From assembly GCA_963981035.1 (NCBI GenBank), contig CAXCCF010000005.1, positions 2,056-66,055 of the forward strand: a stretch of 64,000 nucleotides of DNA, read 5' to 3'. Both the position numbers and the translations under genes were made by a program. Below, in pieces: positions 1-62,748 of this stretch (its first letter is position 1; each line of letters starts with the position of its first letter). Under the pieces are notes generated by a model that ran no database searches, was not told where the DNA came from, and worked only from the letters and a program-made list of their open reading frames with translations. Source of the DNA: an uncultured euryarchaeote. Its GTDB lineage: Archaea > Thermoplasmatota > Poseidoniia > Poseidoniales > Poseidoniaceae.

Positions 1-797
1 TGCTTTTGGCCAGCACCAGCGCCACGCATTGCTCTAAGCATATCTTGAATGGAATGCAAGCAACGTAGTGAAACGATGTAAAAGTGGTGAGCCTTGTCTG
101 CTTCTTTCTTTGAAGTTCTCAAGCCTCGATGTGCAGTTTCTGCCAGTTCTCTTTGACGGTCAACTTCGGAGTTCCAAAGAAGCATTAGTTCGTGTGCTTC
201 TTGAGCCGCAGTTGCAGCCTGTTGAACTTCTTCGTGTGCAATTTCTTGCAGTGCCATTGCTTCTTGTATTGCGGCTCGAGAATCCTTCAAATCAGTGTTA
301 GATTCTTCAGCAACCTTTAGTTTCTTTATCTGAGCAGAGATATCTTTCATTCTCTTCATTACCTTTGTTTCATTGTTTCCGGTGTGCCTTCCTTGCTCAA
401 ACTCATTTTCAAGTCTGTACAGTTCTTTTCTAAGTGATGGAATAGTTGCAGGTCTCTTTTCCCATTTCTTTCTGCCGCCTTGTTGTTCTCTCGGCGCAGG
501 TGCTTCTGGACCTTTTGCACTGTCAAATGCTAATTTTGCAGCCTTCACTGCATCACTGGCAGCAGAACGTGCAGACTTCTTTTCACGAACGATTTCGTTC
601 ATTTGTTCACGAATTTCTCTCTGTTCTCTGACTTGAACAATTAATTCTCTTACTTCGGCATTCAACTCGTTACGAACTGTGGTATGAGATTTGGTTTTTT
701 CATTCCATTCATCACGGGTAGTTCGGTATTGTGTAGCTTTGTTATCTACTAGTTTTCTACGTTCTTCGAGTTGAGTTTTGAAGTCTGACATTGTCAT
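1..797 (-). CDS. Archaeal coiled-coil protein, COG1340-like (C-terminus lies beyond the window edge)
   Basis: My own minus-strand translation is uninterrupted from ATG 797 to position 1 (MTMSDFKTQLEERRKLVDNKATQYRTTRDEWNEK...). AGGTG lies 3 nt upstream of ATG 797. Other in-frame ATGs are at 791, 872 and 890. The K/E/R/Q-rich heptad pattern is typical of the archaeal coiled-coil family. It is absent from the ORF track because no stop falls inside the window. Plus-strand ORFs 68-301 and 373-636 are its shadows. Confidence 0.7.
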   Translation of the reverse strand, partial: MTMSDFKTQLEERRKLVDNKATQYRTTRDEWNEKTKSHTTVRNELNAEVRELIVQVREQREIREQMNEIVREKKSARSAASDAVKAAKLAFDSAKGPEAPAPREQQGGRKKWEKRPATIPSLRKELYRLENEFEQGRHTGNNETKVMKRMKDISAQIKKLKVAEESNTDLKDSRAAIQEAMALQEIAHEEVQQAATAAQEAHELMLLWNSEVDRQRELAETAHRGLRTSKKEADKAHHFYIVSLRCLHSIQDMLRAMRGAGAGQK

Positions 798-1007
798 TCG
801 CACCTGTTCGGGGGGAAGATTCCCATCTTCTCGCCGACTCGCCCACTTTACTCCCCCATTTAACCCCTTCATTAGAGCCTTGACATCCATTATTGCTAAA
901 GACCATGCTGAAAGGGCTTTCAGCGAATTATTTTATCCTGCAAAATGAGAATATTATTTGTGATAATAGTTAAGGTGGGGGAGCACCTGTATACTACTGG
1001 TGAGGAT

Positions 1008-1691
1008 ATGTTTTTAGGGTCAATACAAGGTTTTGAACGAGTACTTCAGAATGATGTTAATTCGCCGTACATTACATTGGTAACAGGCCCACCTGGCTCA
1101 ATGAAGTCAAGTTTTTGTATGACTATGTTATCTAATCATCTCAATAGAACTGGTGAATTCGGATTATACTGTACAGTTGAAGAAAGTGTAGATTCACTCG
1201 TGCGTGGCTCTGCCAGTATGGGAATAAACATGCCAAATAATTTGCAGCTTACAGATTTCACCGAACTACGCAGGGAAAACGAAAATATGGATTATCTAAA
1301 ATTTACTAGAAGAATGATTGAGCATTTCAAGCAGCAACATGGTGAAAGATTTACTACTTTTGTACTTGATTCTCTAGGTGCAATATATTCATTGACTTCT
1401 GTAGACCAAGTAATGCGTAAGAAAATGTTTGGCTTCTTTGATTTCTTGCGAAGCATGGATCTCAATGTATTCATCATCACTGAGAGAAATGTCGGCTCAC
1501 ATGCTGAACTACAGGGTAATGAAGGATTCTTGGCTGATGCTGTAATCAATTTGGGAATGGATCAAAGAAATGGTAAACTGATCAGAACTTTACAAATTGA
1601 GAAAATGCGTCATTGCCGCCATGCCATGGAAAAGATGGCTATTGATGTGGGGCAAAATGGAATGGTCATTCTTGGCCCGCTATTTGACTAA
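1008..1691 (+). CDS. KaiC/RecA-superfamily ATPase (single-domain, COG0467-like)
   Basis: Walker A is GPPGSMKS and the Walker B-like strand is TTFVLDSLG. The N-terminus IQGFERVL resembles the KaiC/RadA-like GxxGxDxxL entry motif. The ORF opens at 945, but the domain boundary and a GGTGAGGA motif favour ATG 1008. Confidence 0.65.
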   Translation: MFLGSIQGFERVLQNDVNSPYITLVTGPPGSMKSSFCMTMLSNHLNRTGEFGLYCTVEESVDSLVRGSASMGINMPNNLQLTDFTELRRENENMDYLKFTRRMIEHFKQQHGERFTTFVLDSLGAIYSLTSVDQVMRKKMFGFFDFLRSMDLNVFIITERNVGSHAELQGNEGFLADAVINLGMDQRNGKLIRTLQIEKMRHCRHAMEKMAIDVGQNGMVILGPLFD

Positions 1692-1693
1692 AA

Positions 1694-2068
1694 TCATATT
1701 TGAAGTGCATTCAGTTCCTCTACTGCCTTTGCTAATGATTTTCTTATTAGGCCTAAGTTACACGATGGTTGTAACTTTACTACCAACAAATTATTTTTCT
1801 CTAAACGATTTGCAATCAATATCGCATTTTGTGATGTTATAGTTACCGATTGACTCTCCGGAGTATGTTCTAATACACCGATAATAGAGGAGAAATCGAG
1901 ATTTTGTTCAGAACTCTTCGCCACTGTAACTAGTCCATCTTGGTCCAATAACTGCGCACTGACAACTCCGTTTGAATTTTGCAACTCAGTAAGAATCCTT
2001 TGTTCCACATTTACTGCAGAAATGACAGGGGCATAACCTTTGAGATGTAATATTGACATTATTGGCAC
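1694..2068 (-). CDS. Roadblock/LC7 (MglB-like) domain protein
   Basis: The 124-aa product has the pattern NGVVSAQLLDQDGLVTV...SVTITSQNAILIANRLEKNNLLVVKLQPSCNLGLIRKSL, which matches the Roadblock/LC7 alpha-beta-alpha layout. Its start lies 3 nt after the upstream GNAT stop. Confidence 0.55.
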   Translation of the reverse strand: MPIMSILHLKGYAPVISAVNVEQRILTELQNSNGVVSAQLLDQDGLVTVAKSSEQNLDFSSIIGVLEHTPESQSVTITSQNAILIANRLEKNNLLVVKLQPSCNLGLIRKSLAKAVEELNALQI

Positions 2069-2071
2069 ATT

Positions 2072-2569
2072 TCAATATTTTTTCAAATCGCCACGCATCA
2101 TATATCCCAGTCCGCTAGAATAGTATCCCTTGAGTTCATTCATTATTACAAGGCCTCTTTTTCTATAGAATTCTTGCCCCCTAATATTTGATGCCTTCAC
2201 TTCTAATTGCACTTTACGATATCCTGCATTCAATGCACAATCAACGAAATGATTCCAAGCAAGGCTGCCTAATCCTTTACTTTGCAATTCTGAGCAAATA
2301 GAAAATGCTGCGACTCTGACAATGTCATCTTTGAATGGTGTGGACCAAAATAATCCCTTTAGACACTTAGCATTTGTATAATCAGTTCCTTCAAGCAGCA
2401 ATAAGTTGCCACCCCATTTTGGGATATTAAGATTTGAAACAGAAGCACTGGAATATTGTTCTCCATTTTCATTCAAAAATAGTTCCAAAACTTCATTTTT
2501 CCACTCAGAACTCAAGTTCTTTGGTTCTGGTCCTAACATCCATTGGATGCCATCTTGCACAATTATCAC
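2072..2569 (-). CDS. GNAT family N-acetyltransferase (RimI/Ard1-like)
   Basis: Acetyl-CoA binding motif A is QSKGLGSLAWNHFVDCALNAGYRKVQLEVKASNIRGQEFYRKRGL. The size, 165 aa, fits the family. Its start overlaps the upstream stop by 4 nt (ATGA). Confidence 0.8.
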   Translation of the reverse strand: MIIVQDGIQWMLGPEPKNLSSEWKNEVLELFLNENGEQYSSASVSNLNIPKWGGNLLLLEGTDYTNAKCLKGLFWSTPFKDDIVRVAAFSICSELQSKGLGSLAWNHFVDCALNAGYRKVQLEVKASNIRGQEFYRKRGLVIMNELKGYYSSGLGYMMRGDLKKY

Positions 2570-4587
2570 TCCTTACGGGAATTTTTTGAACGGCTTCTCG
2601 TCCCTCTATGGGCTGTTAAGTCTCTAGCAGAGTTGCTTCTTTTTGCACGAGAGTATTTTTTCTTAGGAGAATGCTTGTTTTGTTTTTCAGTTTCTGTAAA
2701 AATACTTCCTTTACTCAACAGGATATTTAGTTCGGACAACGACAAACCTTCTCCAGATTCCATTTTGGACTGCACTTTGGCAATGTCTTTCTTGCTAAAT
2801 GTCTTATAATTAGACTTGTTAAAATTCTTAGAGTATGATTTTATGGAATACTGCTTCTTGATAGATTCACTATGTTTCAGCCACGACTTTAATCGGCCTA
2901 ATTCTCTCTTTATTTTCCTTTTTTCAAGGTTAAGTTCTTCAAGATAGCGAGTAATCAAGTTTGAACTGCTGAAAAATGTATCAGAATTATTTTCTTTCGA
3001 AATATTATTTTTTATTGCTGAGGCTGAATCAGTTGATGTTGATAATTCTGAATTATTCTGATTCTTTACAAGTTCTATAAATTGGCCATGTAATTTGTCT
3101 GCTTCACGTGCCTTAGGTAACATTTCTTGCAGTTCAAAGAACAATGAGAAATCATTTTCTTCTGTGAGAATTGAAGGGACTCTAAAGATGTCAACTTCGC
3201 CGGTTAAGCGTTCGTAAATTCTTGACAACTCCTCTTCGATTCTATAGGTGGGGATTAGTATTTTCTTCTGTATTTCATCGCGCAATGTTGCGATTTCAGG
3301 GATTTTCTGCACCTTCTTCCTCTCTTCTAGACAAATAATGATTTTATTTTCTACTTCCTCCAATTGGGTAGTATTGATCTTGATTGAAGCATTTACTTCT
3401 TCCTTTCCTTTGCCTCTAAGGTCGTGGAATAAATCTAATTGTTTGTCCGAAACATGAGTTTCAGGATTTCTCAATTCACACAATTGTTGCCAGGAATCAC
3501 CATTACAAATACCAAACCACATACGAAGTATTTCTTCGTGAATATCCATTACCCCTTCTGCCCGAAGAACCGTACTTAGGTCTCTCTTCAAATCAAATGG
3601 GTCTTCAATTGGTAAACTATGTTTGCCGACTCTTTTTGATTCATCATTGATAATGATATCAATTGCAGTTGGGTCGTGCTCAATCCAGTTCTTTTCATCT
3701 CTAGAAAGAGGTGCCCCATTTCTAATGGAACATATGTCATTGGCCCAGTCCCAATTAGCAAATGTTTCAAAAAAGTGCACGATAATTTCTCCAAGTGTTT
3801 GCTGATTTTGTTGCTTTAGTAAATTCTTTGGATTTGGATGAATTGTAACATCGTATTCATCGCCTTCAACATTCTGAATGTTTCGTTTTTTACCAGATTG
3901 AACATTTGCGACCAAAGGCGGTGTAGTCATTTGCATTGATTGAATGCTCATCAGAGACCACGAATATGAGGATAAAGTCCCTGCAGGGGCATCGCTGACA
4001 TCTCGACACATCGCCCAATATTTTATCGCTAAAATTGCTTGCGAAACTCTTGCATCTTGCATAGAATACGTCTTGAGTAATTGAGTATTATGTAGTGCAA
4101 GTGTATTGTTTACTGATATGTCTAAGGGTATTCCTGTTTTGGCATCTCTGCATTTCACGATAGGTACCTTCGCATGTGGAATTACCACAATATCTACAAA
4201 GTCATATTGTCTTAGTAATTTGCCGATTTTATTGAAAATCTTCTTCGGAACTGTGCCCGATATTTGCAAGCATAAATCAAGGTCTCCTTGAGCTAATGAC
4301 AATCCAGTAACTGATGAACCGAATTTGTCTAATGTGCTTCCTGGGAAGCGAGATTCCAACAACTGTTTCAAGAATTTGAATAATTTTGTCCGGCTTTTGT
4401 CTTTCTTATTGTGTTCAAGTTGCTTGCGCAACATTTCAGTGACATCATCATTTAGTCTGGCAAGGGCTTCTTGAGGAATTTCCGCAGCCGTTGGAAATTC
4501 TAACTCACCGATTAATGCATTATGCAGATTTGGCCAGCGCCCCTGCTGCTCTGCAGTAAATTGAGTAATCGGGCAGATGTCAGCCAT
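2566..4587 (-). CDS. Cid1/GLD-2/TUTase-type terminal nucleotidyltransferase with C-terminal coiled-coil and Lys/Arg/Ser-rich tail
   Basis: The Pol-beta NTase signature is FGSSVTGLSLAQGDLDLCL. The third catalytic Asp lies in AKVPIVKCRDAKTGIPLDISVNN. The nucleotide-recognition motif is KYWAMCRDVSDAPAGTLSSYSWSLMSIQ. PAP-associated-like segments are LGEIIVHFFETFANWDW and LPIEDPFDLKRDLS. The C-terminal ~270 aa are heptad-rich and end in a basic tail. Confidence 0.8.
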   Translation of the reverse strand: MADICPITQFTAEQQGRWPNLHNALIGELEFPTAAEIPQEALARLNDDVTEMLRKQLEHNKKDKSRTKLFKFLKQLLESRFPGSTLDKFGSSVTGLSLAQGDLDLCLQISGTVPKKIFNKIGKLLRQYDFVDIVVIPHAKVPIVKCRDAKTGIPLDISVNNTLALHNTQLLKTYSMQDARVSQAILAIKYWAMCRDVSDAPAGTLSSYSWSLMSIQSMQMTTPPLVANVQSGKKRNIQNVEGDEYDVTIHPNPKNLLKQQNQQTLGEIIVHFFETFANWDWANDICSIRNGAPLSRDEKNWIEHDPTAIDIIINDESKRVGKHSLPIEDPFDLKRDLSTVLRAEGVMDIHEEILRMWFGICNGDSWQQLCELRNPETHVSDKQLDLFHDLRGKGKEEVNASIKINTTQLEEVENKIIICLEERKKVQKIPEIATLRDEIQKKILIPTYRIEEELSRIYERLTGEVDIFRVPSILTEENDFSLFFELQEMLPKAREADKLHGQFIELVKNQNNSELSTSTDSASAIKNNISKENNSDTFFSSSNLITRYLEELNLEKRKIKRELGRLKSWLKHSESIKKQYSIKSYSKNFNKSNYKTFSKKDIAKVQSKMESGEGLSLSELNILLSKGSIFTETEKQNKHSPKKKYSRAKRSNSARDLTAHRGTRSRSKNSRKE

Positions 4588-5352
4588 TCAAATCTCTCCG
4601 CCCTTGTTATTTTGTGATGCTTTTGTCTTGTTCATCTTTGATATCGCAGGGGTTGAATATTCACCTTCTCGCACTCTCTTGGCATTTACCAATAATCTAT
4701 CCAATCCTTTGTCAATCAATTGTTGCCAGTGTTCAATTCCTCTTTCGCTGTAATCAAGTGCTTGGCTGAGCAGAGCAGTACGCGAGTCTGCCCTCCTTCT
4801 CATCGCTTCATTTTCGAGATAAGTATTACTGAATTTTTCTTTGGCATCCTGCAAGGGTAATAGTTCATCATGCGAAAGTATTGATGCCGAAATCTCATTC
4901 AATGTGTCATTATGGTGTGATTCAAATTGTTCATCTGAACTATTTTTACCACTAAACTGATTGAAAGTTTCAGTTGTTAGATCTTTCATTTGGTCTAGGA
5001 CAATCCTTTGTTGATGATTATTTTCATTGGACTCTTTGTATATTTGCATCAATGAGAGAAATTCTTTTTTGGATTCTTCAGCAACAGCATCTTCAATAAA
5101 TTCACACATGCTTGAAAATAACTGGCTTGCTTTATTTTGAGATTGTAAACAATTGTCTAATATTTCGTTAATTTGCTTGTCAAAACCATCGCGGTTTTCT
5201 TTAGCAGTTCTGGTCAATGGTACTGCGACATCTAACTCTTCTTGACGAGCATCCAACTGTTCAGGAATCGCCTGCGCTAACCTCTCTCGACGATGCAAGA
5301 TGGCCCGAGCCAACAAGTCTGGGGTAATTTCCAGCAACTCGTCAGGTGTCAT
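4588..5352 (-). CDS. Hypothetical alpha-helical protein (first gene of the NTase operon)
   Basis: A 254-aa ORF with no motif I recognise, and composition consistent with long helices. Its stop directly abuts the NTase start codon with a 0-nt gap. Confidence 0.55.
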   Translation of the reverse strand: MTPDELLEITPDLLARAILHRRERLAQAIPEQLDARQEELDVAVPLTRTAKENRDGFDKQINEILDNCLQSQNKASQLFSSMCEFIEDAVAEESKKEFLSLMQIYKESNENNHQQRIVLDQMKDLTTETFNQFSGKNSSDEQFESHHNDTLNEISASILSHDELLPLQDAKEKFSNTYLENEAMRRRADSRTALLSQALDYSERGIEHWQQLIDKGLDRLLVNAKRVREGEYSTPAISKMNKTKASQNNKGGEI

Positions 5353-10320: not shown

Positions 10321-11328
10321 ATGCGCGGAATGAAAGATGACGCTGAGGAGAAGCCTGATGCGGACCTTCGTGAAGAACTTCAGACGATGGAAGCGAAAGT
10401 TCGCAAATTGCGTGAAACACGTAATTCATTCAGCGATTCTGCTAAGCAGAGTGCTGATAAGCGCAATGCAATCCAGGCACAATTCAAGGAACACAGAGAG
10501 AAATCAGCTCTTGTTCTTTCAGAAGTAAAAGTAATTCGTGCGGAAATAAAATTGTTTAAAGAGAAGCGCAATGCAATTCAAGACCAAATCCGCCAACTAA
10601 TCTCGCAAGCAAAGGGTCGTCGCGGTGAAAAGAAAGAGAAGCGTTCAGCTACAGCTGAATTTGCTCAACTAAGACAAGAGGTTGACAACTTAGAGAGAAC
10701 TTTTGAAACATCAAGCGTTGGTGCAAAGAAAGAGAAAGAAATGATGGCTAGTCTAAAATTAAAGCATCGCCGTCTTGCAGAATTAGAACCAGAGGTTGCA
10801 CATTTTGACCTTGTTAGCGTTGATTTGTCAGATTTGGATGGTTCAATAAAAATTCTAAAGGCCGAAGCGGATGCAGCACATACAGCAATGATAGAAGCAG
10901 TTGGCCGCGTTACTGAAAAATCAAAGGAATTGGATGAAGTATTTGCCCACCGTGATTTCCTCAAAGCAGAAGGAGACCGGTTCCATGAAGAATATCTTGA
11001 ATTTAGAAAGAAGGCTGATGATATGCATGCAAAGACTGTTGAGTTGATGAAGGATGTTGACAAAGCACGTGACCAATTAAAACTTGCAAAGAAGGAGAGA
11101 GAATCTTGGATTACCGACCATAACCAATCTGTCAAAAATCAGATGTCATCGGGAGCTAGTTCCGAAGATGTTGCTAACGATTTAGTTAGTAGTCTAATGT
11201 CTTCAGGTTCTTTGACGATTGGTGGGACAAGTGGAGCAGAAAACAGTGCAAAATCCCGCCTTCCTATTGGGAAGTCATCTAAGAAAGCCGGAATGCGCCG
11301 AATAAATATGCAGAATCGTCGCCGATGA
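10321..11328 (+). CDS. Archaeal coiled-coil protein, COG1340-like (paralogue of the gene at 1-797)
   Basis: A continuous K/E/R heptad pattern runs through LREELQTMEAKVRKLRETRNSF...AHTAMIEAV...HEEYLEFRKKADDMHAKTVELMK. This has the same architecture as the partial gene at the window start. Confidence 0.7.
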   Translation: MRGMKDDAEEKPDADLREELQTMEAKVRKLRETRNSFSDSAKQSADKRNAIQAQFKEHREKSALVLSEVKVIRAEIKLFKEKRNAIQDQIRQLISQAKGRRGEKKEKRSATAEFAQLRQEVDNLERTFETSSVGAKKEKEMMASLKLKHRRLAELEPEVAHFDLVSVDLSDLDGSIKILKAEADAAHTAMIEAVGRVTEKSKELDEVFAHRDFLKAEGDRFHEEYLEFRKKADDMHAKTVELMKDVDKARDQLKLAKKERESWITDHNQSVKNQMSSGASSEDVANDLVSSLMSSGSLTIGGTSGAENSAKSRLPIGKSSKKAGMRRINMQNRRR

Positions 11329-14610: not shown

Positions 14611-14771
14611 GAGCGAGGGTGTCGGCGAGATGGATTTGATATTAACTCCAAATCAACACGCAATCATTCGTTTTAGAAGTCCGAATCAAAGGGGGCTGTT
14701 CATATAGGGGTGGTTAGTCGGCGGAATGCAAGTGGGGTAGCCCCCGCAAGACAACACCGAGAGTGAATCCA

Positions 14772-15749
14772 ATGGCGAAGAAAGTAAGTGCAAGAGCACG
14801 TGCAGCAGCACGTAAGCAACGTGACAAGTGGAAGATGAAGAGATGGTACACTATTCGTGCACCTCGTCATCCATGGGATTTCAAGCAAATTGGAGAAACA
14901 ATCGGTGAGTCAGATGAACATATTATGGGCCGTGTCTACGAAATGACACTGCAAGAATTCAATGGCGACTTTACAAAGATGCACATCATCCTTAGATTCA
15001 GAGTTACTGAAGTAGTTGGCAGAGATGCATTGACTACATTCATCGGTCACCATCACCAAACAGACCACACACGACGTCAAATTCGCCGTTACCGTGGTAA
15101 GGTTGACGATGTCGTCGATGTCGTTTCAACAGATGGATACCTTGTACGTTTGAAGCCATTGATTATTACTCAAAAGCGTGTTCAGACTTCAGTCAAGCAA
15201 GCAATGCGAGCAAAGACAGCAGAAGTAATCCGTGCGTTTGCATCAAAGAATACCTTTTCTAAGATCCAAGAATCAATTCTTGGTGGCGAATTGGAAGGAG
15301 AAATTCTCAATGCAGTTAAGCCAATTTACCCTGTAAAGTCTGTGGCAATTCAAAAGAGCCAACTTCTACAAGAGGGTGTAACCAATGAGAAGGGTCCTAC
15401 TTTGGATGATATTCATGCAAATGAAGCTCGCCAAGAAGCAGAATTGAAAGCCAAGAAGGCTGCAGCAATTGCAGCAGCAATGGACGGAGAAGAAGAAGCG
15501 GAAGAAGAGGAAGTATCAGATGCACCATCTATTCTTGACGCAGCCGAGGCCCTAGAGCCAGCAAGCGAGAAGACTGAAGCAGCACCTGCTGAAGAAGAAG
15601 TTGTTGAAGAAGCACCTTCTGAAGAAGAAGTTTCTTCCGACGCTGACTACAGTTCAATGACTGTTGCAGAACTCAAGGAACTCTTGAAGGCTGCAGGAAA
15701 ACCAGTCTCTGGTAAGAAGGCAGATTTAATCGCTCGGTTAAACGAATGA
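14772..15749 (+). CDS. rps3ae: 30S ribosomal protein S3Ae (eS1) with acidic linker and C-terminal SAP motif
   Basis: The core runs KKVSARARAAARKQRDKWKMKRWYTIRAPRHPWDF...EMTLQEFNGDF...RFRV. ATG 14772 lies inside the track ORF that starts at 14763. The C-terminal ~120 aa are an E/A-rich linker followed by MTVAELKELLKAAGKPVSGKKADLIARLNE. Confidence 0.9.
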   Translation: MAKKVSARARAAARKQRDKWKMKRWYTIRAPRHPWDFKQIGETIGESDEHIMGRVYEMTLQEFNGDFTKMHIILRFRVTEVVGRDALTTFIGHHHQTDHTRRQIRRYRGKVDDVVDVVSTDGYLVRLKPLIITQKRVQTSVKQAMRAKTAEVIRAFASKNTFSKIQESILGGELEGEILNAVKPIYPVKSVAIQKSQLLQEGVTNEKGPTLDDIHANEARQEAELKAKKAAAIAAAMDGEEEAEEEEVSDAPSILDAAEALEPASEKTEAAPAEEEVVEEAPSEEEVSSDADYSSMTVAELKELLKAAGKPVSGKKADLIARLNE

Positions 15750-24964: not shown

Positions 24965-26869
24965 ATGCGCCAAACATTTAAACAAATAAAAGACGAAATA
25001 GCCAAGATAATTCCAAAGGCAGTGGATTATTCAGTTGACCTAGAAGCCGGTGACATTGTCATCGTTACTTCCATGCTGGAAAGATTTACTGGTGGTGAAG
25101 GATTCCTCGGAAAGATATCAAAGACCATCAAGAAGAAAGTAATTCTTAGGCCGGATGAAAGTATCATGATGTCCGAAGAGGACACATTGAAAGTTATCAA
25201 AGAAATAATTCCTGAGGATGTAGATATTAATCAAATATATTTTGATCAATGTTTCCGAGAATTGATTATCCAGTGTGACAAACCAGGAAATGCAATTGGG
25301 CGCAAGGGTGTAAATCTAAAACAAATAAGAGATAAAAGCGGATGGCTGGTAAAGGTGGAAAGAACTCCACCAATCCATTCAAAGACAGTGCATGATATCC
25401 GAGGATATAGACAAGCTAATCATGAAGAAAGAAGAAAATTATTGAAGGATTTCGGCCTCAACATTTACCGCCCAACAAGGCCAGGTCAGCAATGGGCTCG
25501 ATTGACAGCACTTGGTTCGTATAGAGAAGTCGGAAGGGCCTGTCACTATGTGACGACCAATGAATCCAGAGTGATGATAGATGTTGGAGTGAATATTGCT
25601 AGTGATACCGATCCAATGCCATACTTCACTGCACCAGAGGCATTACCGATTGAAAAATTAGATGCGGTTGTTTTGACACATTCTCATTTGGATCACGCAG
25701 GAATGCTTCCAGTGCTATTCAAATATGGATATAAGGGTCCAGTATATTGTACCCCCCCAACTCGTGATTTGATGCTATTATTGCAAACAGATTATTTGAA
25801 AGTTAGTGGTTCTGAAGGAAAAAGATGCCCATATGATATGGAAGATATCCGAACCTGTATGAAGCATGTAGTCGACGTAAATTGGGGAGAAACTACTCAA
25901 ATAACCCCTGATGTCAAGCTAACATTCTCAAATGCAGGTCATATTTTGGGTTCTTCTGCAGTACATTTACACATTGGTGATGGAAAGCATAACATTGTAT
26001 TATCCGGAGATCAAAAATACGAAAAATCATGGTTATTCGATGCAGCAAATACTCGGTTCCCACGCGTTGAAACATTGGTATTGGAATCAACATACGGTGC
26101 ATCAGGAGATTATCAGCCAAGTCGTCAAGAAGCGAATCAAGAATTGCAAGATATTGTTTCCAGAACTTTGAGACGTGGCGGCAAAATGATTTGTCCTGTA
26201 TTCGCAGTAGGTCGCAGCCAAGAAGTGATGATAGCAATCGATGAATTATTCCGTTCTGGTGCAGTAAAACCAGTACCGGTGTGGCTTGATGGAATGATAC
26301 AAGAAGCTACTGCGATTCATGCAGCGCACCCTGATTATCTCACTAGTAGTCTGCGCAAATCTTTGCTGCAAGATGATGGAGAAAACCCATTCACAAGTGA
26401 ATGGTTTAGGCCGGTAAAGGGTAGAGAATTACGTGATAGTATTATCCACGATTCGTCACCATGTATTGTCTTGGCAACATCTGGAATGATGAGTGGTGGT
26501 CCGGTAATGGAATATTTCAAGCACTGGGCACATGAAGATAGAAATTCGCTTTGTTTCGTGGGTTACCAAGCGGAAGGAACTCTTGGAAGAAGATTGCAAA
26601 AAGGCTTTGGAGAAGTTCCGATGGTCATTAATGGCAAAACTGAAATCGTAAAGGTCGGCTGTGAAATGTTGACTATTGATGGATTCTCGGGCCATTCAGA
26701 TCGCAGACAATTATTAGAATTCGTAGATCAAATTCATCCAAAGCCGCAAAATATTATCTGCCATCACGGTGATTATTTCAAATGTAACGAACTTGGTAGA
26801 ACATTGCGTGATAGGTACAAATGTAGAACCTATGCTCCAAAGAATTTGGAAACAATTCGCTTGATGTAA
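24965..26869 (+). CDS. fttA: aCPSF1/FttA: KH-domain beta-CASP metallo-beta-lactamase ribonuclease (transcription termination factor)
   Basis: N-terminal KH-like repeats contain GNAIGRKGVNLKQIRDKSGW. The MBL motif is THSHLDHAG, with beta-CASP motifs downstream. The 634-aa length is typical, and the position next to psmB matches the synteny common in archaea. Confidence 0.95.
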   Translation: MRQTFKQIKDEIAKIIPKAVDYSVDLEAGDIVIVTSMLERFTGGEGFLGKISKTIKKKVILRPDESIMMSEEDTLKVIKEIIPEDVDINQIYFDQCFRELIIQCDKPGNAIGRKGVNLKQIRDKSGWLVKVERTPPIHSKTVHDIRGYRQANHEERRKLLKDFGLNIYRPTRPGQQWARLTALGSYREVGRACHYVTTNESRVMIDVGVNIASDTDPMPYFTAPEALPIEKLDAVVLTHSHLDHAGMLPVLFKYGYKGPVYCTPPTRDLMLLLQTDYLKVSGSEGKRCPYDMEDIRTCMKHVVDVNWGETTQITPDVKLTFSNAGHILGSSAVHLHIGDGKHNIVLSGDQKYEKSWLFDAANTRFPRVETLVLESTYGASGDYQPSRQEANQELQDIVSRTLRRGGKMICPVFAVGRSQEVMIAIDELFRSGAVKPVPVWLDGMIQEATAIHAAHPDYLTSSLRKSLLQDDGENPFTSEWFRPVKGRELRDSIIHDSSPCIVLATSGMMSGGPVMEYFKHWAHEDRNSLCFVGYQAEGTLGRRLQKGFGEVPMVINGKTEIVKVGCEMLTIDGFSGHSDRRQLLEFVDQIHPKPQNIICHHGDYFKCNELGRTLRDRYKCRTYAPKNLETIRLM

Positions 26870-35936: not shown

Positions 35937-38900
35937 ATGGTGGATATGGGAGCAGAGACTAGTTGTAGGGCTGCGGCGATAACCCTGGTATTCATTTTCT
36001 TAGTATCCACATTTTCTGGCCTTATTTCTAATCAAGAAAATGAAACTTTACAACACCAATCCGTTAATTCCGCATCAACTCCTATTGGCCAAAGTAGTTT
36101 GCTAACGATTGGTTCGTTCCCAGATGGTTCTAATCAAAAAGTCAGTATTTCAGTTCCTGATGGTGAGGCAATACAATCTCTTGATTTGAATATTGAAGCT
36201 GCAACATTGACTACATCTACTGCTTTTTCATGGGATGATACGGCAGATTATGCAACTGGGACTGTTTATGATGGAATGGATGTCAATGGTTCTTCGTTGA
36301 GTATATTACCACAGGGTATGGAATGGGATTTTGAAGGAAGCCAACAAGGCTGGACCTTTGGACCAGGTTGGTTGCATGGAAGTGACACAACCCCCGGGTC
36401 TCATGGCCTAAGCGGTGGAGTACATGGTGGCGTCAGTGGGATCTATACCTACAATGGGGATTATCCAAACAATATAGGAACCACCTATTGGGCAACTTCT
36501 CCGACATTTGATTGTTCAGGATGTAGCGGCTCTTGGCAGTTGAAGTATTGGAAGCGTTTAGGAGTTGAATCATCATCTTGGGATCATGCATATGTTTCGG
36601 TATCAAAACCAAATGGCGGATGGCAAACAATTTATTCAAGCTCATACGTATACGATAATGCATTTTATCAAGTGACAAATGATATTTCGAATTACATTGC
36701 TGGTAACTCAGATTTCAAAGTCAGATTTGGAATTGGAACAACGGATTCCAGTGTCACATATACGGGATGGAATGTTGACGATGTTGTTATTGAACCGCTC
36801 GGTGGAGTCTCGGCTGGTGAAGGCAATTGGACATCTCAGCCATTTAGTCCTCTTTCATTAGGAATGGGCGAAGACAGGGCGTTTGGAATGTTGTACATGG
36901 ACGCAGTTATTCCAGCAGGTTCATTGTTTGATTGGAGTCTAATGGATGCCTCCACAGGTCAACTAATACCTCAATATTCTCACTTTGAAACAACAAGTAT
37001 GGATTTGGGAATGGTAGACTGGCAAAAGTATCCATCTGTAAGAATGAAAATTCATATGGGGACAGGTCAAGGAAATAGTGCGCCAATTATTCATGGATTT
37101 TATTTCGATGGAGCCATCTATGAAGATTTTAACGATGACCCATATAGAATGGGTTGGCAACTACAAGGTTCTACTTGGGCAACAGGCACTATTAGTGGAA
37201 CGTCGGATGTATTATCTCCAATCTATAGAATGAGGTCTGGCTTTGGTGCCATGGTTAGCCATTCGGTATTCAACTCAGGTTGTGAATTGCAATATTCACT
37301 GGATAGTGGTCAGACATGGGATACGCTAGTAAATGATGCAATGGAATCGTTAAGTACACCAAAATTCATGGTTCAATTCAAATTTACTTCAAGCAATACC
37401 TGTAATATTGATTTATTTGATGTTGAATTAATTCATACATCTGTTGCTGATGGTCTAAGAATAGATGTGGGATTAGATGGAATTGCAGATTGGTCTTTGA
37501 ATAATCCAGGTGATGGACGTTTTGGAATACAGGACGAGCATAGATTTGGTTCCTCTTGGAAGAGTTCAAATTCAATACCAACCGCACCATCATTCTTTGA
37601 GATATTGCTTCCGTCAAAAGGTGTATCTGATTTTTCATTCGCTCTTGCAAGTGATGTTGAGATGAAAAATCCATATGCAACAATTTCAGTAGATGGTACA
37701 TCGATCATTAACAAACCATTGTCCGACTTATTGACCTGTCAAGAAATCAGTCTGTCGGCGAGTGAATTAACATCATTAAACAATGCTCTCACTACAAATG
37801 GCGACTTTTCATTAGAAGTGATAACCATTAGAGTTGGTTCATCTGAGACTCCCGCAGAAGTGATGATGGGAGGTATATTTGCTCCATGGGATACAAATCT
37901 TGACCTGTCATTTTCTGCAACAGACGCCATAGTATTGGCACTAAATAATCAATTGACGACAATCGTTCCAATCGCTGGAGTTAAAGAAATAAAATTGCCA
38001 GTGAGAATGAGTAGTACTGGGGCGGTTAGATTAACCGTTGATGGAATCACTTCGCAATCATCCGTTACACCTGTTTCACTTACTGTTAGCAATGTAGAGG
38101 ATACATTTACTCCTAGTGTCGAATGGTATGAAGTTGAAAGTGTATTTGATTTCTCTAATTTAGGAGTTACTAATGCACTATCACATTCTAGGTCAAATAG
38201 TTGGTCGGTAGAGATGAAATTAATAGGTCAAAATCAATACTCTTCAATTAGATGTCCACTAACGTCACTCAACATGTCCGGGTCTAGCATATCAGGATGC
38301 ACAATTTCTGGAGTTAATTTGTTATGGACAAATGCCGGTGCTGATGGTAGAATCTCAGTTGTTGATGCAGGACAGTATATCCAAATAGAGCATAAATTCA
38401 AATTCCCCGAATCATGGGATGACGAATCATCATTATCGGCGACAGTATTCTTGATAGCACCAACAGGGCCGATGATTCCAGCGAGTAAGGATTTTGGACT
38501 TGGCAATTCGGCAGGAGTAGAAAATGACGTCACCCTAAAATCATGGTCTGTGGTTACTTCAACAGGAGTACATTCAGTTGAAACTGCCCCATACCTCAAT
38601 CCAGGTCAGCAGGTTGATATTGAAGCTGTAATCGGATTTGAAGACGTATACCAAAGCCCTTCACCTCGTTCAGGACAAACCATGGTCAAATTGTTTGAAG
38701 ATGGTGTGGAAATGACCACTTCTTCTATGGTTACAAATGGAATCGTATCATTACCCTATTCAATCCCAACGGGAAAAGATAAAGTGGATTTAGAAATTAT
38801 TCTTGAACCTCTAAAAGGACAGGATGTCGGATATGAAACAACCAATAATTTGACTTTTGAGTTTGATACAATCGCACCACTGATGCTGTCAAAAGATGTG

Positions 38901-41012
38901 GAGCAATTCGACCATCGTGATGTATCGCCACGCACTGAATTCACTTTCCAAATCGCAGATAGACCAGTACTGCCAAGTCATGCTAAAGCGCACTTATGGA
39001 GGTCTTGGGCAGACGACCTCAATATGGATGGAGCGATGAATGAAAATGAGGTCATTGTAAAGGATTTAATCTTACCAGATGATTTAACCCATCTGCAGGC
39101 AGATTATACATTGGACATGGATACTTCACTTGCTCCAGATGGTTCATTTTTCTCAGGATGGCTTGAAATTGCAGACCCTGCTGGAAATAGTCTCGAAAAT
39201 CCGGGTTCATACCTTGAACCTCTATTTCATGTGCAATTACGAAGTGATGGCGCACCTAGTTTGGGTTCAATTTCTAATGACTGGGGATTAGGAGAAAATG
39301 TTTGGATTCATCCAGGGGAATCTTATGTCGTTGAAGTCTCAATTTGGGATAATAATGGAATCAGTGACATTTCAAACATTAATTTGGCGCTATCTGGAAA
39401 CACCTTTGATAGTGTTGAAATCATTTGGTCTGGTGAAAGCCAGACCTGCTATTCATCGGAAATATTCCTTGATATTGAATCGTGTGAACTAATTCCTCTT
39501 GAAACGTCAGAAGTGTTTTCGTTAGAAGGATTATTTACCGTTAATTTCTCTTTAGAATGGGGATTTAATCCTGATGTGAGTTTATTGAGAAGACCGCATT
39601 TAACGCTTAATGATTATCAGGGGCAGTCAAATAATTTTGATCTATCCAGTTTAGATTGGAAATTTTCAGGAGAATTGCAAATTGATAGAGATGAACTTTC
39701 AATCTCAACAGGTGGTGAAGAGATTGATGGATTAGCAGAATGGATAACACCGAGAACGGATATTGAGATATCTGGTGGAATTGAATGGTACCGAAGTGGT
39801 AGAGATGTGATTCAACCGCTTGAATTATTGTTTTCAATATCCGACACTGATGTTGAACTTGATTACACAAATGGACACTTTTCAGGGAATATATTATCGC
39901 CCTTAGAAGTTGGAACTTTTACCTTGACTGGTGAGTTATTCGACCCACCTAATGGTGCGATTGACAAGGGCCCGAAGACTCCTTTTGCTTGGTTCATTGT
40001 TGACGAAGTCTCTCCGAAGATAGTTAGCGTTAACAATCCAGTTTATGATTCAGTTATCGATGAAAAGGATTGGAATGAACTTTCGATAGAACTGACAATT
40101 TCAGAAGATGAACAATTGGATGCAGACACGCTCAAATTAAACTGGGCAGTACATCCTGCTGGCCTTGGATTAAACATTGAGTCTGTTGTTAATGGGACGC
40201 TCCCTCTTACGGTTCTTGGTGGAAAATTAAGCGGTGATTCAATACCTTGTAAAGCTCAACTTAATTTGGCCGCAGAATTAAGTCAAGAATTACGTTCACA
40301 GAATTTGGAATTGCGCATATGGATTACTGGAATGGATAAAGCGGGCCATGAAATCTCAAAGACATTCAATGACATAGACGCTCCTCAATCCGTCTGGCTA
40401 ATCGAACAAAGAATTGCACAATTTAATTTTGCAACACCACAAATGGAACCGAGCAAGGGACTACATGCAAATGACCCAGTAGATTTAGCAGTATTAATCA
40501 GCAATGACGGAAGAGCATCAGGTAGCGCCCAATTAGTGTTAGAATTGGTTGAGAGCAATGGGGCAAGGACACGACTAGATGCTAGAGGGATTAATCTCGA
40601 AGCAGGAGAAAATATGGTGTACTCTCATCAATGGACCCCTGACCGTATGGGTACTGTGTGGGTTGAATTCCACATAATAAATGGCCCTAGTACTCAAACC
40701 GCAACCGTTCATATTGACGCGGCTGAGACCGAAGGTATTGTGGCTAGTTTTGGTGAAATCAATCCTTTGTTACTGGTAATAATCGTGCTGCTTTCAATAT
40801 CATTGATAGGTTTGATCACTTATGGATTGAAAGATGGAAATAACGCTAATCGTAAATTTAATCCAGCGAAACAAAAGAAGGCATCAAAATCATTACCGAG
40901 CATGGAGGAAATCGCCAATGCTCAGAAGGGTAATGAAACGGAAGTGTTGTCTGAAGGTAACTATTCTGGTGTCCACAGTAGCAGTTCACCCGGCGAGAAC
41001 CCGTATCAATGA
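35937..41012 (+). CDS. Giant (1691 aa) surface protein, C-terminally membrane anchored
   Basis: The N-terminal signal-anchor is AAAITLVFIFLVSTFSGLI. A MAM/choice-of-anchor-like beta-sandwich is suggested by WDFEGSQQGWTFG...YTGWNVDDVVIEP. Long Ig-like repeats follow. A CARDB-like module (NDPVDLAVLISNDGRASGSA) precedes the TM helix LLLVIIVLLSISLIGLITYGL and a 57-aa tail. Confidence 0.85.
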   Translation: MVDMGAETSCRAAAITLVFIFLVSTFSGLISNQENETLQHQSVNSASTPIGQSSLLTIGSFPDGSNQKVSISVPDGEAIQSLDLNIEAATLTTSTAFSWDDTADYATGTVYDGMDVNGSSLSILPQGMEWDFEGSQQGWTFGPGWLHGSDTTPGSHGLSGGVHGGVSGIYTYNGDYPNNIGTTYWATSPTFDCSGCSGSWQLKYWKRLGVESSSWDHAYVSVSKPNGGWQTIYSSSYVYDNAFYQVTNDISNYIAGNSDFKVRFGIGTTDSSVTYTGWNVDDVVIEPLGGVSAGEGNWTSQPFSPLSLGMGEDRAFGMLYMDAVIPAGSLFDWSLMDASTGQLIPQYSHFETTSMDLGMVDWQKYPSVRMKIHMGTGQGNSAPIIHGFYFDGAIYEDFNDDPYRMGWQLQGSTWATGTISGTSDVLSPIYRMRSGFGAMVSHSVFNSGCELQYSLDSGQTWDTLVNDAMESLSTPKFMVQFKFTSSNTCNIDLFDVELIHTSVADGLRIDVGLDGIADWSLNNPGDGRFGIQDEHRFGSSWKSSNSIPTAPSFFEILLPSKGVSDFSFALASDVEMKNPYATISVDGTSIINKPLSDLLTCQEISLSASELTSLNNALTTNGDFSLEVITIRVGSSETPAEVMMGGIFAPWDTNLDLSFSATDAIVLALNNQLTTIVPIAGVKEIKLPVRMSSTGAVRLTVDGITSQSSVTPVSLTVSNVEDTFTPSVEWYEVESVFDFSNLGVTNALSHSRSNSWSVEMKLIGQNQYSSIRCPLTSLNMSGSSISGCTISGVNLLWTNAGADGRISVVDAGQYIQIEHKFKFPESWDDESSLSATVFLIAPTGPMIPASKDFGLGNSAGVENDVTLKSWSVVTSTGVHSVETAPYLNPGQQVDIEAVIGFEDVYQSPSPRSGQTMVKLFEDGVEMTTSSMVTNGIVSLPYSIPTGKDKVDLEIILEPLKGQDVGYETTNNLTFEFDTIAPLMLSKDVEQFDHRDVSPRTEFTFQIADRPVLPSHAKAHLWRSWADDLNMDGAMNENEVIVKDLILPDDLTHLQADYTLDMDTSLAPDGSFFSGWLEIADPAGNSLENPGSYLEPLFHVQLRSDGAPSLGSISNDWGLGENVWIHPGESYVVEVSIWDNNGISDISNINLALSGNTFDSVEIIWSGESQTCYSSEIFLDIESCELIPLETSEVFSLEGLFTVNFSLEWGFNPDVSLLRRPHLTLNDYQGQSNNFDLSSLDWKFSGELQIDRDELSISTGGEEIDGLAEWITPRTDIEISGGIEWYRSGRDVIQPLELLFSISDTDVELDYTNGHFSGNILSPLEVGTFTLTGELFDPPNGAIDKGPKTPFAWFIVDEVSPKIVSVNNPVYDSVIDEKDWNELSIELTISEDEQLDADTLKLNWAVHPAGLGLNIESVVNGTLPLTVLGGKLSGDSIPCKAQLNLAAELSQELRSQNLELRIWITGMDKAGHEISKTFNDIDAPQSVWLIEQRIAQFNFATPQMEPSKGLHANDPVDLAVLISNDGRASGSAQLVLELVESNGARTRLDARGINLEAGENMVYSHQWTPDRMGTVWVEFHIINGPSTQTATVHIDAAETEGIVASFGEINPLLLVIIVLLSISLIGLITYGLKDGNNANRKFNPAKQKKASKSLPSMEEIANAQKGNETEVLSEGNYSGVHSSSSPGENPYQ

Positions 41013-61356: not shown

Positions 61357-62748
61357 GTGTTAGATTTGTCTCGTGAATACATCGCAAGGGACCCAAGAAC
61401 TGGGTTGCCACTAAATGTGGGAAACAAGAAGAAATCTAGGAAAAAAGTACTCCAGAAAACCGAAACTGGTCCATGGCAAGGATTGCGTAAGCAAGATATT
61501 ATTCCTTTGGCCAAAGGAGATATCAAAACTGCAAAATCTGTTTGGACTGATAAGGATTATCAATTGACTCAAGCCGATGGAGTCAGAGCATTACAAATGC
61601 TCAAAGGATTTGCTTCAAAAGAAGCTCATAAGGTACTATTAGTTTCATTTGAAAATGACGACCCAGCAATCCGGATTGCTGCCTTAAAGGCACTACCGGA
61701 AGTAGCGATTCAGAAGTCGGATGAAATGTTTGATTGGCTAAGTGTTCTCCTTGACGATGATGATGTAAATGTCAGTATGGCTGCGAGTAAAGCGCTTGTG
61801 ATTTCGGCACCTGTTTTCCCTTCAGCAGTTGAAACAATCTTGGTTAATGAGTTGCGTTCACCGATTGATTTCCGTCAAAAAAATGCCTGGGAGGCATTGA
61901 AAGGATTGTCAGAAACTTGGCCTGAAGTAGTCTGTATTCATATCGATAGTCTAATGCTTGAAACGGATGAAAAAATCCGAATCAAGGCATCAAAATTATT
62001 GCGTAAGGTGATGAAAAAGGGTGGTTCATCTGCCTGGGATTTGGTGTCATGGGCACTTAATGATGAAAGTGATGAAGTTCGTAGAATTGCGGCCAAAACA
62101 TTACCAACATTGGCAAATCATGAGCCAAGAGTTGCCACTTTATTTGCCGAGAGAGCAATGGTAGACATAGATCCAGCAGTCCGTATTTCTGCGATAAAAG
62201 CAATTCAAAACTTAGACAAGGATAACGGCAGGGCTCAAGACATCGTTCTTTCAGGAACCCGAAGTAAGGACTTACAAGTTCGTATTGCTTGTATCAATTT
62301 ACTACCACGACTATTGAGCGAAGATGTATTGCGTGTAACCGCTGAAGAATTGCTCCGTACTGAAAAGAATAGTCAACTGATAAAGAGCCTAAAAGAAATG
62401 GTATTCGATGCAGAGATTGAGGGTACGGAGGCACAAAAGAATAGTTACCTTGCAGCAGCACTACCGGTGCCTCAAATAGATCGTGAAATTGCAGAATCTC
62501 AAGGCAAACAAATTGGATTAGAACCGCTTCCATCCGAAAAGAAAATTACGGAGGAAATTAGTGAGAAGCCGGACCATTTGTTAACCGATGCTGAAAGAGT
62601 TCAGAAAATGATTGAAATGAATGAACGCATCAAGAAAAAGGAAGCCGAGAGGAAAAATGCATATCGTTCCTTTTCACAAGATGAAGTCTATGGATATGAT
62701 GATGATTTTGCACCAGATTTTGATTCCGAAGATGGTTCTGAATTTTAA
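61357..62748 (+). CDS. HEAT/PBS-lyase-like repeat protein with acidic C-terminus
   Basis: The D(P/x)xVRxxAxxxL repeat recurs as DPAIRIAALKAL, DVNVSMAASKAL, DEKIRIKASKLL, SDEVRRIAAKTL, DPAVRISAIKAI and DLQVRIACINLL. The start is GTG. Confidence 0.7.
   Translation: MLDLSREYIARDPRTGLPLNVGNKKKSRKKVLQKTETGPWQGLRKQDIIPLAKGDIKTAKSVWTDKDYQLTQADGVRALQMLKGFASKEAHKVLLVSFENDDPAIRIAALKALPEVAIQKSDEMFDWLSVLLDDDDVNVSMAASKALVISAPVFPSAVETILVNELRSPIDFRQKNAWEALKGLSETWPEVVCIHIDSLMLETDEKIRIKASKLLRKVMKKGGSSAWDLVSWALNDESDEVRRIAAKTLPTLANHEPRVATLFAERAMVDIDPAVRISAIKAIQNLDKDNGRAQDIVLSGTRSKDLQVRIACINLLPRLLSEDVLRVTAEELLRTEKNSQLIKSLKEMVFDAEIEGTEAQKNSYLAAALPVPQIDREIAESQGKQIGLEPLPSEKKITEEISEKPDHLLTDAERVQKMIEMNERIKKKEAERKNAYRSFSQDEVYGYDDDFAPDFDSEDGSEF

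Follow-up and report, generated by a model that had tools for sequence, protein, structure and literature searches.

We report that a marine archaeon carries a complete gene for an enzyme of the Cid1 type, a class of RNA-tailing polymerases otherwise treated as eukaryotic. The gene lies in a 64,000-nucleotide stretch of contig CAXCCF010000005.1 (assembly GCA_963981035.1, an uncultured member of the Poseidoniaceae; positions 2,056 to 66,055 of the forward strand), which we refer to in its whole length as the window, and it encodes a terminal nucleotidyltransferase (TENT) of 673 amino acids (aa). Based on sequence conservation, a predicted structure and gene neighborhoods, we propose with good confidence that the product is a catalytically competent, template-independent RNA 3' TENT of the branch formed by Cid1, URT1, TUT4/7 and CutA, and that the gene was acquired a single time by the ancestor of the Poseidoniales, most probably from a eukaryotic donor, and then inherited vertically at a fixed site. 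The gene and the elements of its catalytic module are located in the window as follows.

2566..4587, reverse strand: complete archaeal Cid1/TUT-type TENT gene, 673 aa; uninterrupted open reading frame (ORF) with an ATG start and its stop codon at 2566-2568
4063..4455, reverse strand: Pol-beta-type nucleotidyltransferase (NTase) palm, aa 45-175; PF22600 MTPAP-like_central, 3.1e-30; predicted local distance difference test (pLDDT) of the model about 90
4276..4284, reverse strand: DxD metal-binding carboxylates D102 and D104, following the helical turn F89-G90-S91; they align with the catalytic DLD of TUT7/TUT4
4120..4122, reverse strand: third catalytic aspartate, D156; aligns with TUT7 'vDIS'
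3586..3798, reverse strand: segment associated with poly(A) polymerases (PAP), or PAP-OAS1 substrate-binding segment, aa 264-334; PF03828, 43.8 bits against a cut-off of 22.6
3580..3609, reverse strand: nucleotide-recognition motif IEDPFDLKRD, aa 327-336, with the base-selecting triad D329/D332/R335, placed by alignment to URT1 and TUT4

The initial annotation, made from the letters of the DNA, had described an intact 673-aa ORF with the motifs of this family in canonical order, and both the ORF call and the motif positions bear this out. From the N to the C terminus the blocks are FGSSVTGLSLAQGDLDLCL (aa 89-107), AKVPIVKCRDAKTGIPLDISVNN (aa 139-161), KYWAMCRDVSDAPAGTLSSYSWSLMSIQ (aa 189-216), LGEIIVHFFETFANWDW (aa 266-282) and LPIEDPFDLKRDLS (aa 325-338), and the palm signature hG[GS]x9-13Dh[DE]h is present as F89-G90-S91...D102-L-D104, plus D156. 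In a Pfam scan of the window TENT, three families score above their gathering thresholds, PF22600 (3.1e-30), PF03828 PAP_assoc (3.1e-11) and PF19088 TUTase (9.4e-8; TUTase, terminal uridylyltransferase); the generic PF01909 reaches 17 bits, under its cut-off, and the scan found no Pfam domain specific to CCA-adding enzymes. The profile result is thus the one that had been anticipated, PF22600 with PF03828 and not the profiles of CCA-adding enzymes, minimal nucleotidyltransferases (MNT/AbiEii) or CD-NTases. A phmmer search against all PDB chains gave 39 matches, solely to members of the Cid1 family: TUT7 (E = 9.9e-46), TUT4 (1.8e-44), URT1 (1.9e-35), CutA (8e-32) and Cid1 (5e-27), followed more weakly by GLD-2 (2e-25), TUT1 (3e-20), MTPAP (3e-18), Tailor (2e-8) and Trf4 (4e-7). 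The gene had first been labeled as Cid1/GLD-2/TUTase-type; the affinity is highest to URT1, TUT4/7, CutA and Cid1, so that most of this label holds, and GLD-2 is the less apt comparison.

The predicted structure gives the same answer. An AlphaFold2 model computed from an alignment of 17 family members has a pLDDT of 79 overall and of about 90 over aa 1-370, the catalytic half. Its top Foldseek match is CutA (2e-21), with a template modeling (TM) score of 0.82-0.84; the score is 0.90 for URT1 (root-mean-square deviation 2.5 Å) and 0.88 for Cid1, all values being normalized to the target, and the two-domain module superposes on these three proteins over 335-360 columns. The structural comparison that the initial annotation had called for therefore places the model closest to URT1, Cid1 and CutA (TM 0.82-0.90). 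All 50 Foldseek matches listed are Cid1-family TENTs (CutA, TUT7, URT1, Cid1, TUT1), and no CCA-adding enzyme, minimal NTase or cGAS/OAS protein is among these 50. Sequence matches and listed fold matches share 24-28% identity with the window TENT, and GTLSSY (aa 203-208) and IEDPFDLKRD (aa 327-336) align with the type II recognition motifs of TUT7, TUT4 and URT1. By sequence and by structure, the catalytic module of the window TENT belongs to the Cid1-type TENT family.

Two other assignments were considered and rejected. For a class I (archaeal) CCA-adding enzyme, the corresponding Pfam domain was not found, and no such enzyme occurs among the 39 PDB matches or the 50 fold matches listed. For a CD-NTase (cGAS-DncV/OAS) or a toxin of the MNT-AbiEii-MenT kind, PADLOC gave no match for the TENT or its operon partners, and the locus is fixed and syntenic. 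Some database copies of the TENT carry the automatic label 'DNA polymerase sigma'; the domain match is thus visible in databases, apparently uninterpreted.

Conservation within the family argues that the enzyme works. We aligned 77 species-level orthologues, which are 34-80% identical to the window TENT, and find F89, G90, S91, D102, D104 and D156 invariant in all 77, as are N161, N167, K189, R195, S207, Y208, E328, D329 and D336. The three catalytic aspartates named in the initial annotation are thus both aligned with those of TUT7/TUT4 and unchanging across the orthologues. In pairwise Nei-Gojobori comparisons with the five closest species, the ratio of nonsynonymous to synonymous substitution (dN/dS) is 0.03-0.07 in the catalytic half and about 0.10 in the C-terminal half, values that are rough because dS is saturated. 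Conserved residues together with low dN/dS are the signature one expects of a functioning active site rather than of a decaying transfer, and we consider the TENT likely to be catalytically active.

The nucleotide that would be added is a separate question, on which the recognition motif bears. In Cid1, His336 selects UTP, and the H336A or H336N mutation yields a poly(A) polymerase (PMC7498324). The equivalent residue of CutA is R557, and the CTP preference of that enzyme rests on R557 together with E551 and N554 (PMC5689010); R557H raises the incorporation of U and R557A that of A (PMC5689010, PMC7498324). The window motif IEDPFDLKRD aligns residue by residue with IEDPFETSHD of URT1 and IEDPFDLNHN of TUT4, which puts R335 at the selecting position, and by the published equivalences D329/D332/R335 of the window TENT correspond to D330/E333/H336 of Cid1 and to E551/N554/R557 of CutA (PMC5689010, PMC7498324). 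The UTP-selecting His that marks terminal uridylyltransferases is therefore absent from the window TENT, and with R335 in its place the protein is not to be filed as a UTP-specific TUTase. The description of the protein as bearing the hallmarks of a poly(A)/poly(U) polymerase stands for the catalytic module; with R335 at this position, neither activity can be assumed. Of the 77 orthologues, 69 have His and 8 have Arg at position 335, and the Arg variants fall into two separate subclades that each have His-bearing relatives, one comprising the window and loci L006-L010, the other L031 and L039. Since His is kept in most orthologues, these are predicted uridylyltransferases; the family as a whole looks TUTase-like, and we infer that the ancestral archaeal TENT was a uridylyltransferase. 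In the lineage of the window, an Arg like that of the CTP-preferring CutA stands beside acidic residues of the Cid1 kind, and for it we predict a shifted or mixed specificity, with C and/or A added besides or in place of U.

The gene resides in an archaeal chromosome. As the initial annotation had judged from the surrounding genes, the contig is archaeal: an archaeal RNase P RNA lies on it (229 bits), together with genes for TruD, ribosomal protein S3Ae, FttA/aCPSF1 (a termination factor), two aminoacyl-tRNA synthetases and a thymidylate synthase. With one genome scanned per GTDB species, relatives of the TENT turned up in 134 species genomes; the scan used clade-specific patterns, and its result carries no weight for other prokaryotes. 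We kept 80 of the 134 species loci for examination and extracted the ORFs of all 80. Every one is of Poseidoniales type, mostly from the Poseidoniaceae (marine group IIa, MGIIa), two being titled Thalassarchaeaceae (MGIIb), and they include single-cell genomes and the 2.06-Mb MG-II chromosome CM001443.1. Exact or near-exact copies of the TENT sit on many independent contigs of up to 83 kb, and more distant full-length homologues on contigs of up to 316 kb. In all 80 loci the ten-gene neighborhood is near-identical: its left part reads DUF7121 protein (335 aa) <- 522-aa protein <- DtxR-type repressor <- CARDB/zinc-ribbon membrane protein, and its right part DUF7121 partner -> TENT -> GNAT acetyltransferase -> small ORF, then <- KaiC-like ATPase.

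This recurrence disposes of the possibility that the gene is a eukaryotic contaminant or the product of a chimeric assembly. Such an origin might be suspected from the closest characterized relatives of the TENT, all of them eukaryotic, and from the slightly lower GC content around the gene (0.367, against about 0.40 in neighboring blocks). However, the gene has no introns and sits tightly, with junctions of 0 and 4 nt, in an operon of prokaryotic style, members of the family are found on the long contigs mentioned above, the window's own contig bears an archaeal RNase P RNA, and the synteny is identical among 80 species genomes that were assembled independently, the 2.06-Mb chromosome and genomes from single cells among them. 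Because the synteny recurs across independent assemblies, we give contamination or chimerism virtually no credence, and the view of the contig as neither eukaryotic nor chimeric is upheld by the same ten-gene neighborhood in 80 of the 80 species-level genomes examined. The TENT is an order-wide, vertically inherited family and not a one-off transfer into the genome of the window. Two loci have bacterial titles, L071 (CALDQY010000113.1, Rhodobiaceae bacterium) and L082 (CAXQWT010000045.1, Salipiger bermudensis), and show full Poseidoniales synteny around the TENT; because of this synteny, they are almost certainly archaeal contigs mis-binned into bacterial metagenome-assembled genomes.

We next consider where the family came from. 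An exhaustive search with HMMER, over 1.84 billion cluster representatives, returned 6187 matches, headed by about 14 archaeal-type representatives (many of 670-730 aa) at 222-1188 bits; the next matches, long TUT4/7-like and other eukaryotic proteins, score at most 181 bits. From the best 150 representatives of the 6187 matches, we drew an unrooted neighbor-joining tree of the catalytic module (152 sequences, 308 columns), which holds no GLD-2, Trf4, MTPAP or canonical PAP subfamilies for rooting. In this tree, 196 of 200 bootstrap replicates recover the 23 archaeal-type representatives (including P0173 and P0187) as a single bipartition. The named sequences near its attachment are scattered among eukaryotes, with Pavlovales (haptophyte), Pharyngomonas (heterolobosean), Hildenbrandia and Galdieria (red algae), Phalansterium, Planoprotostelium and Filamoeba (Amoebozoa), Pigoraptor, Coemansia (fungus) and Pomacea (mollusc), and no donor lineage can be named. 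Viral relatives were found neither in an IMG/VR scan nor by tblastn against phages, and the contigs of the closest unnamed matches (P0183, P0144, P0229) are 1.6-3.9 kb long and uninformative on prokaryotic or viral intermediates.

We infer that the gene passed once, long ago, from a eukaryote to an archaeon near the base of the Poseidoniales, because a very broad distribution in eukaryotes stands against a single archaeal order, because similarity is graded towards one eukaryotic subfamily, and because neither a prokaryotic NCBIfam model nor a viral relative matches. The initial annotation had raised such a transfer, and the single archaeal clade beside eukaryotes speaks for it; the event it had in mind becomes an order-wide vertical family rather than a one-off, on a tree that is unrooted. 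Transfer had also been offered as the alternative to an unrecognized archaeal tailing pathway. The two are not mutually exclusive, and both are likely.

Several observations weigh against this overall proposal of an active RNA-tailing enzyme of eukaryotic descent. As the tree is unrooted and its eukaryotic sequences are only Cid1-like, the direction of the transfer is probable rather than established. The family could instead be native to archaea, as a relic of, or a sister to, the source of the eukaryotic Cid1-type TENTs: the archaeal clade attaches deep, beside no particular eukaryotic lineage, the lack of a root allows it, and the family is diverged to 32% identity within the order and hence old. 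We hold this to be distinctly improbable. Outside the archaeal-type clade there are 2534 representatives at E<1e-10, every nameable one of them eukaryotic and from several supergroups, whereas the archaeal side amounts to about 23 representatives of a single order. The named hosts of that clade are solely Poseidoniales (other archaea were not directly searched), and the window TENT matches no prokaryotic model of NCBIfam. In addition, similarity decreases from URT1, TUT4/7, CutA and Cid1 to GLD-2, TUT1, MTPAP and Trf4, the pattern expected if the archaeal clade is nested inside eukaryotic diversity.

Further adverse points concern the enzyme itself. Enzymes with His at the selecting position need not be U-specific, as described exceptions show (bioRxiv 10.1101/422972). 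Apart from the basic disordered tail, the TENT has no recognizable RNA-binding domain. The second triphosphate-binding Lys of TUT7 aligns with M193, a position occupied by L, S or M across the family; we take this Lys to be the equivalent of Cid1 K197, and the position is not conserved in archaeal TENTs. Two residues past M193, R195 is invariant in the 77 orthologues. Finally, one family member, P0129 (L086:6001-8082, JGI sample 3300003894, 61-kb contig), no longer has the DxD or the third Asp, yet keeps its full length, its syntenic slot and the conserved C-terminal module. This suggests that the P0129 lineage retains the TENT as a pseudoenzyme, and since the protein is intact in length and place without the catalytic carboxylates, its scaffold may function independently of catalysis. 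No KaiC-like gene was called in the P0129 locus.

Taken further, the case of P0129 would make the TENT in general a catalytically dead scaffold, comparable to the N-terminal modules of TUT4/7. Purifying selection on the C-terminal module fits this idea, as does the inactive N-terminal module of TUT4, which likewise has an Arg (VKRN) at the selecting position. Yet the window TENT and all 77 orthologues keep every catalytic and NTP-binding residue checked, and the catalytic half, with dN/dS of 0.03-0.07, is under stronger constraint than the C-terminal half. We regard a dead enzyme as very improbable and continue with the active TENT as the preferred reading.

About half of the protein, some 300 aa at the C terminus, is lineage-specific and consists of two parts.

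2707..3474, reverse strand: family-specific helical C-terminal module, aa 372-627; conserved family-wide, belonging to no Pfam family
2569..2706, reverse strand: disordered, strongly basic C-terminal tail, aa 628-673; pLDDT below 50, ending in the conserved HRGxRG (HRGxRxxSK)

The module carries the motifs DLFxDLR, VPSL..E...F.FFELQ.M, LRRExGRLxAW and SGGxLSLxDLxxLL, and the AlphaFold2 model predicts long helices at 395-442, 447-462, 473-516 and 535-584; folded alone and without an alignment, the module has a pLDDT of 51. In the tail, H660, R661 and G662 are invariant or nearly so in the family alignment. Pfam scans of eight TENT C-terminal halves gave no match, DUF7121 included, and a C-terminal profile search of 5.8 billion proteins, limited by its word-index candidate list, recovered just fragments of the same family. 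By hhalign, the C-terminal half matches the profile of the upstream DUF7121 partner with 34% probability and that of the 335-aa paralogue with 19%; in a small-alignment hhalign comparison with DUF7121-type proteins, the match is a short motif of 26 columns, SG(G/D)xL(S/T)xx(E/D)L (E = 0.007). The precomputed annotation of P0117 and of the C-terminal fragment P0290 lists PF27758.1, which a local Pfam scan of a similar C-terminal half did not return, and a very recent Pfam family may thus already cover part of the module. In the subclade of the window (window, P0036, P0040), the first predicted helical hairpin is shorter by about 36 residues (around aa 430; alignment columns about 431-466). This deletion is absent from all other family members, and the subclade that has it is the one carrying the His-to-Arg change.

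The genes around the TENT form an operon with fixed company, and in the window they are the following.

4588..5352, reverse strand: upstream operon partner, 254-aa coiled-coil DUF7121 orthologue; orthologues match PF23435, and the profile matches a DUF7121 paralogue with 92% probability
2072..2569, reverse strand: downstream RimI-like GNAT acetyltransferase, 165 aa; PF00583 4.8e-7, TIGR01575 rimI 3.3e-10, under the equivalog cut-off
1694..2068, reverse strand: fourth operon gene, 124 aa, after a 3-nt gap behind the GNAT gene; Robl_LC7 E = 0.014, not significant
945..1691, forward strand: convergent KaiC-like ATPase, PF06745 1.1e-30; a conserved neighbor in syntenic loci, without established functional link
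3..890, reverse strand: second DUF7121 coiled-coil paralogue, cut by the window edge; PF23435 2.5e-7, 30.8 bits against a cut-off of 29
10321..11328, forward strand: 335-aa protein, the third paralogue of the DUF7121 coiled-coil type; PF23435 is recorded for its orthologues in L001-L003 and L005

The TGA of the DUF7121 partner directly abuts the ATG of the TENT (TGAATG) in the window, and the two genes overlap by 4 nt in 68 of 73 species loci. Because of this translational coupling, we regard the partner as a putative subunit of the TENT. Downstream, the GTG start of the GNAT gene overlaps the TENT stop (GTGA); the GNAT gene follows the TENT in 74 of 80 loci, and the small fourth ORF is conserved in 57 of 80. 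All Poseidoniales genomes examined have three DUF7121-type coiled-coil paralogues around the TENT operon. Of those in the window, the one at 3..890 occupies the syntenic position of L002:9727-10608, and the 335-aa copy has no Pfam match itself. Two of the paralogue types end in …SG(D/S)xLTxEEL…, resembling SGGxLSLxDLxxLL of the TENT, a resemblance that may reflect a shared docking peptide.

This neighborhood bears on a different kind of activity. An active TENT could make a second messenger or oligonucleotide, as OAS and cGAS do, or nucleotidylate a protein or small molecule, perhaps in conflict or signaling together with the KaiC-like ATPase. OAS, cGAS and TENTs share one fold class (PMC11646218), the TENT is without a classical RNA-binding domain, and a KaiC-like ATPase and a GNAT protein lie in its neighborhood. 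We nevertheless think a product other than tailed RNA unlikely: all sequence matches and the 50 listed fold matches are RNA-tailing TENTs, with no CD-NTase or OAS among them, and the locus has a fixed, housekeeping-type neighborhood in every genome rather than that of a variable island. PADLOC defense models gave no match for the TENT, the DUF7121 partner, the GNAT protein or the small ORF, and weak matches only for the KaiC-like ATPase (2e-4) and the 335-aa DUF7121-type paralogue (1e-3). Moreover, F89 and N161, which we take to be the residues that contact the RNA 3' end in Cid1, are invariant.

For an RNA-tailing TENT, the conserved residues and the known mechanism of the family suggest how the reaction would proceed. 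D102, D104 and D156 would bind two Mg2+ ions, and K189, S207, Y208 and N167 would hold the incoming nucleoside triphosphate (NTP), roles that we assign by analogy with the structure of Cid1. The IEDPF..(H/R)D loop would read the base, and one or more untemplated nucleotides would be added to the 3'-OH of an RNA. More speculatively, recruitment of RNA or partners is the probable task of the helical C-terminal module and the basic tail, and among partners the translationally coupled DUF7121 coiled-coil protein is the likeliest; the most likely role of the enzyme would be the marking of RNAs for turnover or quality control. From the spread of the gene over at least 134 species, we conclude that a dedicated RNA-tailing pathway probably exists in the Poseidoniales. 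In its most specific form, our proposal is that MGII archaea run a dedicated, NTP-dependent RNA 3'-tailing by means of a Cid1-type enzyme targeted by its coiled-coil module and the DUF7121 partner, the added nucleotide having been re-tuned at least twice by the change from His to Arg; we see the chances of this fuller scheme as evenly balanced.

Other features of the contig are recorded here in their own right. About 20 kb from the TENT gene, window 24965-26869 (forward strand) encodes FttA/aCPSF1 (KH_TffA, beta-CASP and RMMBL); no linkage is implied, although this archaeal 3'-end cleavage and termination factor would yield RNA 3' ends that a TENT could use. Ribosomal protein S3Ae (14763-15749, forward strand; PF01015, 4e-54) has a C-terminal SAP domain (aa 295-328, 2e-13), a nucleic-acid-binding motif known mainly from eukaryotes, and this fusion looks unusual for an archaeal ribosomal protein. 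A 1593-aa Kelch beta-propeller and CARDB protein (56430-61211, reverse strand), a 1691-aa ORF without Pfam match (35937-41012, forward strand) and a HEAT-repeat protein (61357-62748, forward strand) are also present; such large or repeat-rich proteins add to an impression of eukaryote-associated repeat families in this genome. Lastly, two transporters of the MMPL/Patched type with sterol-sensing domains (41391-44279, reverse strand, and 53204-55795, forward strand) lie less than 12 kb apart, and only 6 nt separate the start of the first from the end of the gene for the RNase P RNA.

We found no paper linking MGII/Poseidoniales, or archaea, with a Cid1-type enzyme, in a search outside which most subscription journals lie. 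If our reading is true, the TENT would be, next to the CCA-adding enzyme, the first polymerase in Archaea that is dedicated to template-independent RNA tailing, and it would be a parallel to the uridylation-marked RNA decay of eukaryotes. MGII are among the most abundant archaea of the surface ocean, and they would have a second, mechanistically different archaeal tailing route if the enzyme is active. They would also offer a natural experiment, namely uridylation-type marks without the eukaryotic readers (Dis3L2, Lsm1-7). For biochemical work, the family provides a minimal TENT that bears a new, presumed targeting module, and it provides what would be a clear and old case of eukaryote-to-archaeon gene flow. 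Its natural His/Arg variation is a ready-made specificity series, and recombinant expression is possible despite the uncultured hosts. The finding would surprise those who study RNA metabolism in archaea; as for the catalytic chemistry, we expect it to be conventional.

Comparison with known systems sets the archaeal family in context. The sole archaeal activity credited with untemplated 3' tails is the exosome (aRrp41/aRrp42/aRrp4/aCsl4/aDnaG) (PMC1635327, PMC4227792). Portnoy & Schuster state that most archaea have one nucleotidyltransferase gene and no homologue of eukaryotic poly(A) polymerase (PMC1635327), in agreement with the statement of the initial annotation that archaea are described as lacking such enzymes and that tails are attributed to the exosome. 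The exosome is phosphorolytic and, run in reverse from nucleoside diphosphates, makes heteropolymeric A-rich tails, whereas the TENT has an unrelated Pol-beta fold and is predicted to depend on NTPs. The CCA-adding enzyme shares the Pol-beta NTase fold, works on the 3' ends of RNAs and falls in the same structural clade (PMC11646218); unlike it, the TENT has no CCA-specific Pfam domain, and its PF01909 score of 17 bits is sub-threshold. Non-canonical PAPs and TUTases, for their part, have been treated as a eukaryotic invention (PMC11646218).

It is these eukaryotic enzymes that the TENT resembles most. The cytoplasmic terminal uridylyltransferases URT1 (Arabidopsis), TUT4/TUT7 (human) and Cid1 (S. 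pombe) have the same module, an NTase palm inserted in a PAP/OAS1 domain, with the G-S...DxD...D signature, the SSY and IEDPF..HD motifs and TM scores of 0.82-0.90; most archaeal orthologues even read 'HDL', the same as URT1. In contrast to these proteins, the archaeal TENT has an archaeal host, shares its operon with a GNAT protein and a DUF7121 coiled-coil protein, is without eukaryotic zinc knuckles, N-terminal pseudo-catalytic module and intrinsically disordered N-terminus, and possesses a unique helical C-terminal module and basic tail. The second Lys of TUT7 is not conserved, and the subclade of the window has Arg where URT1, TUT4 and Cid1 have the selecting His. That Arg recalls CutA (Aspergillus nidulans / Thielavia terrestris), the CUCU-tagging, CTP-preferring enzyme that is our top Foldseek match and whose R557 corresponds to R335. 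However, CutA has E551 and N554 where the window TENT has Asp at both positions (D329, D332), as is Cid1-like, so that a CutA-like specificity cannot be assumed; and the Arg arose independently inside the archaeal clade, in two subclades. What is new in comparison with the characterized members is therefore an archaeal host, order-wide vertical inheritance, a helical C-terminal module with a basic tail, and an operon with DUF7121 and GNAT proteins.

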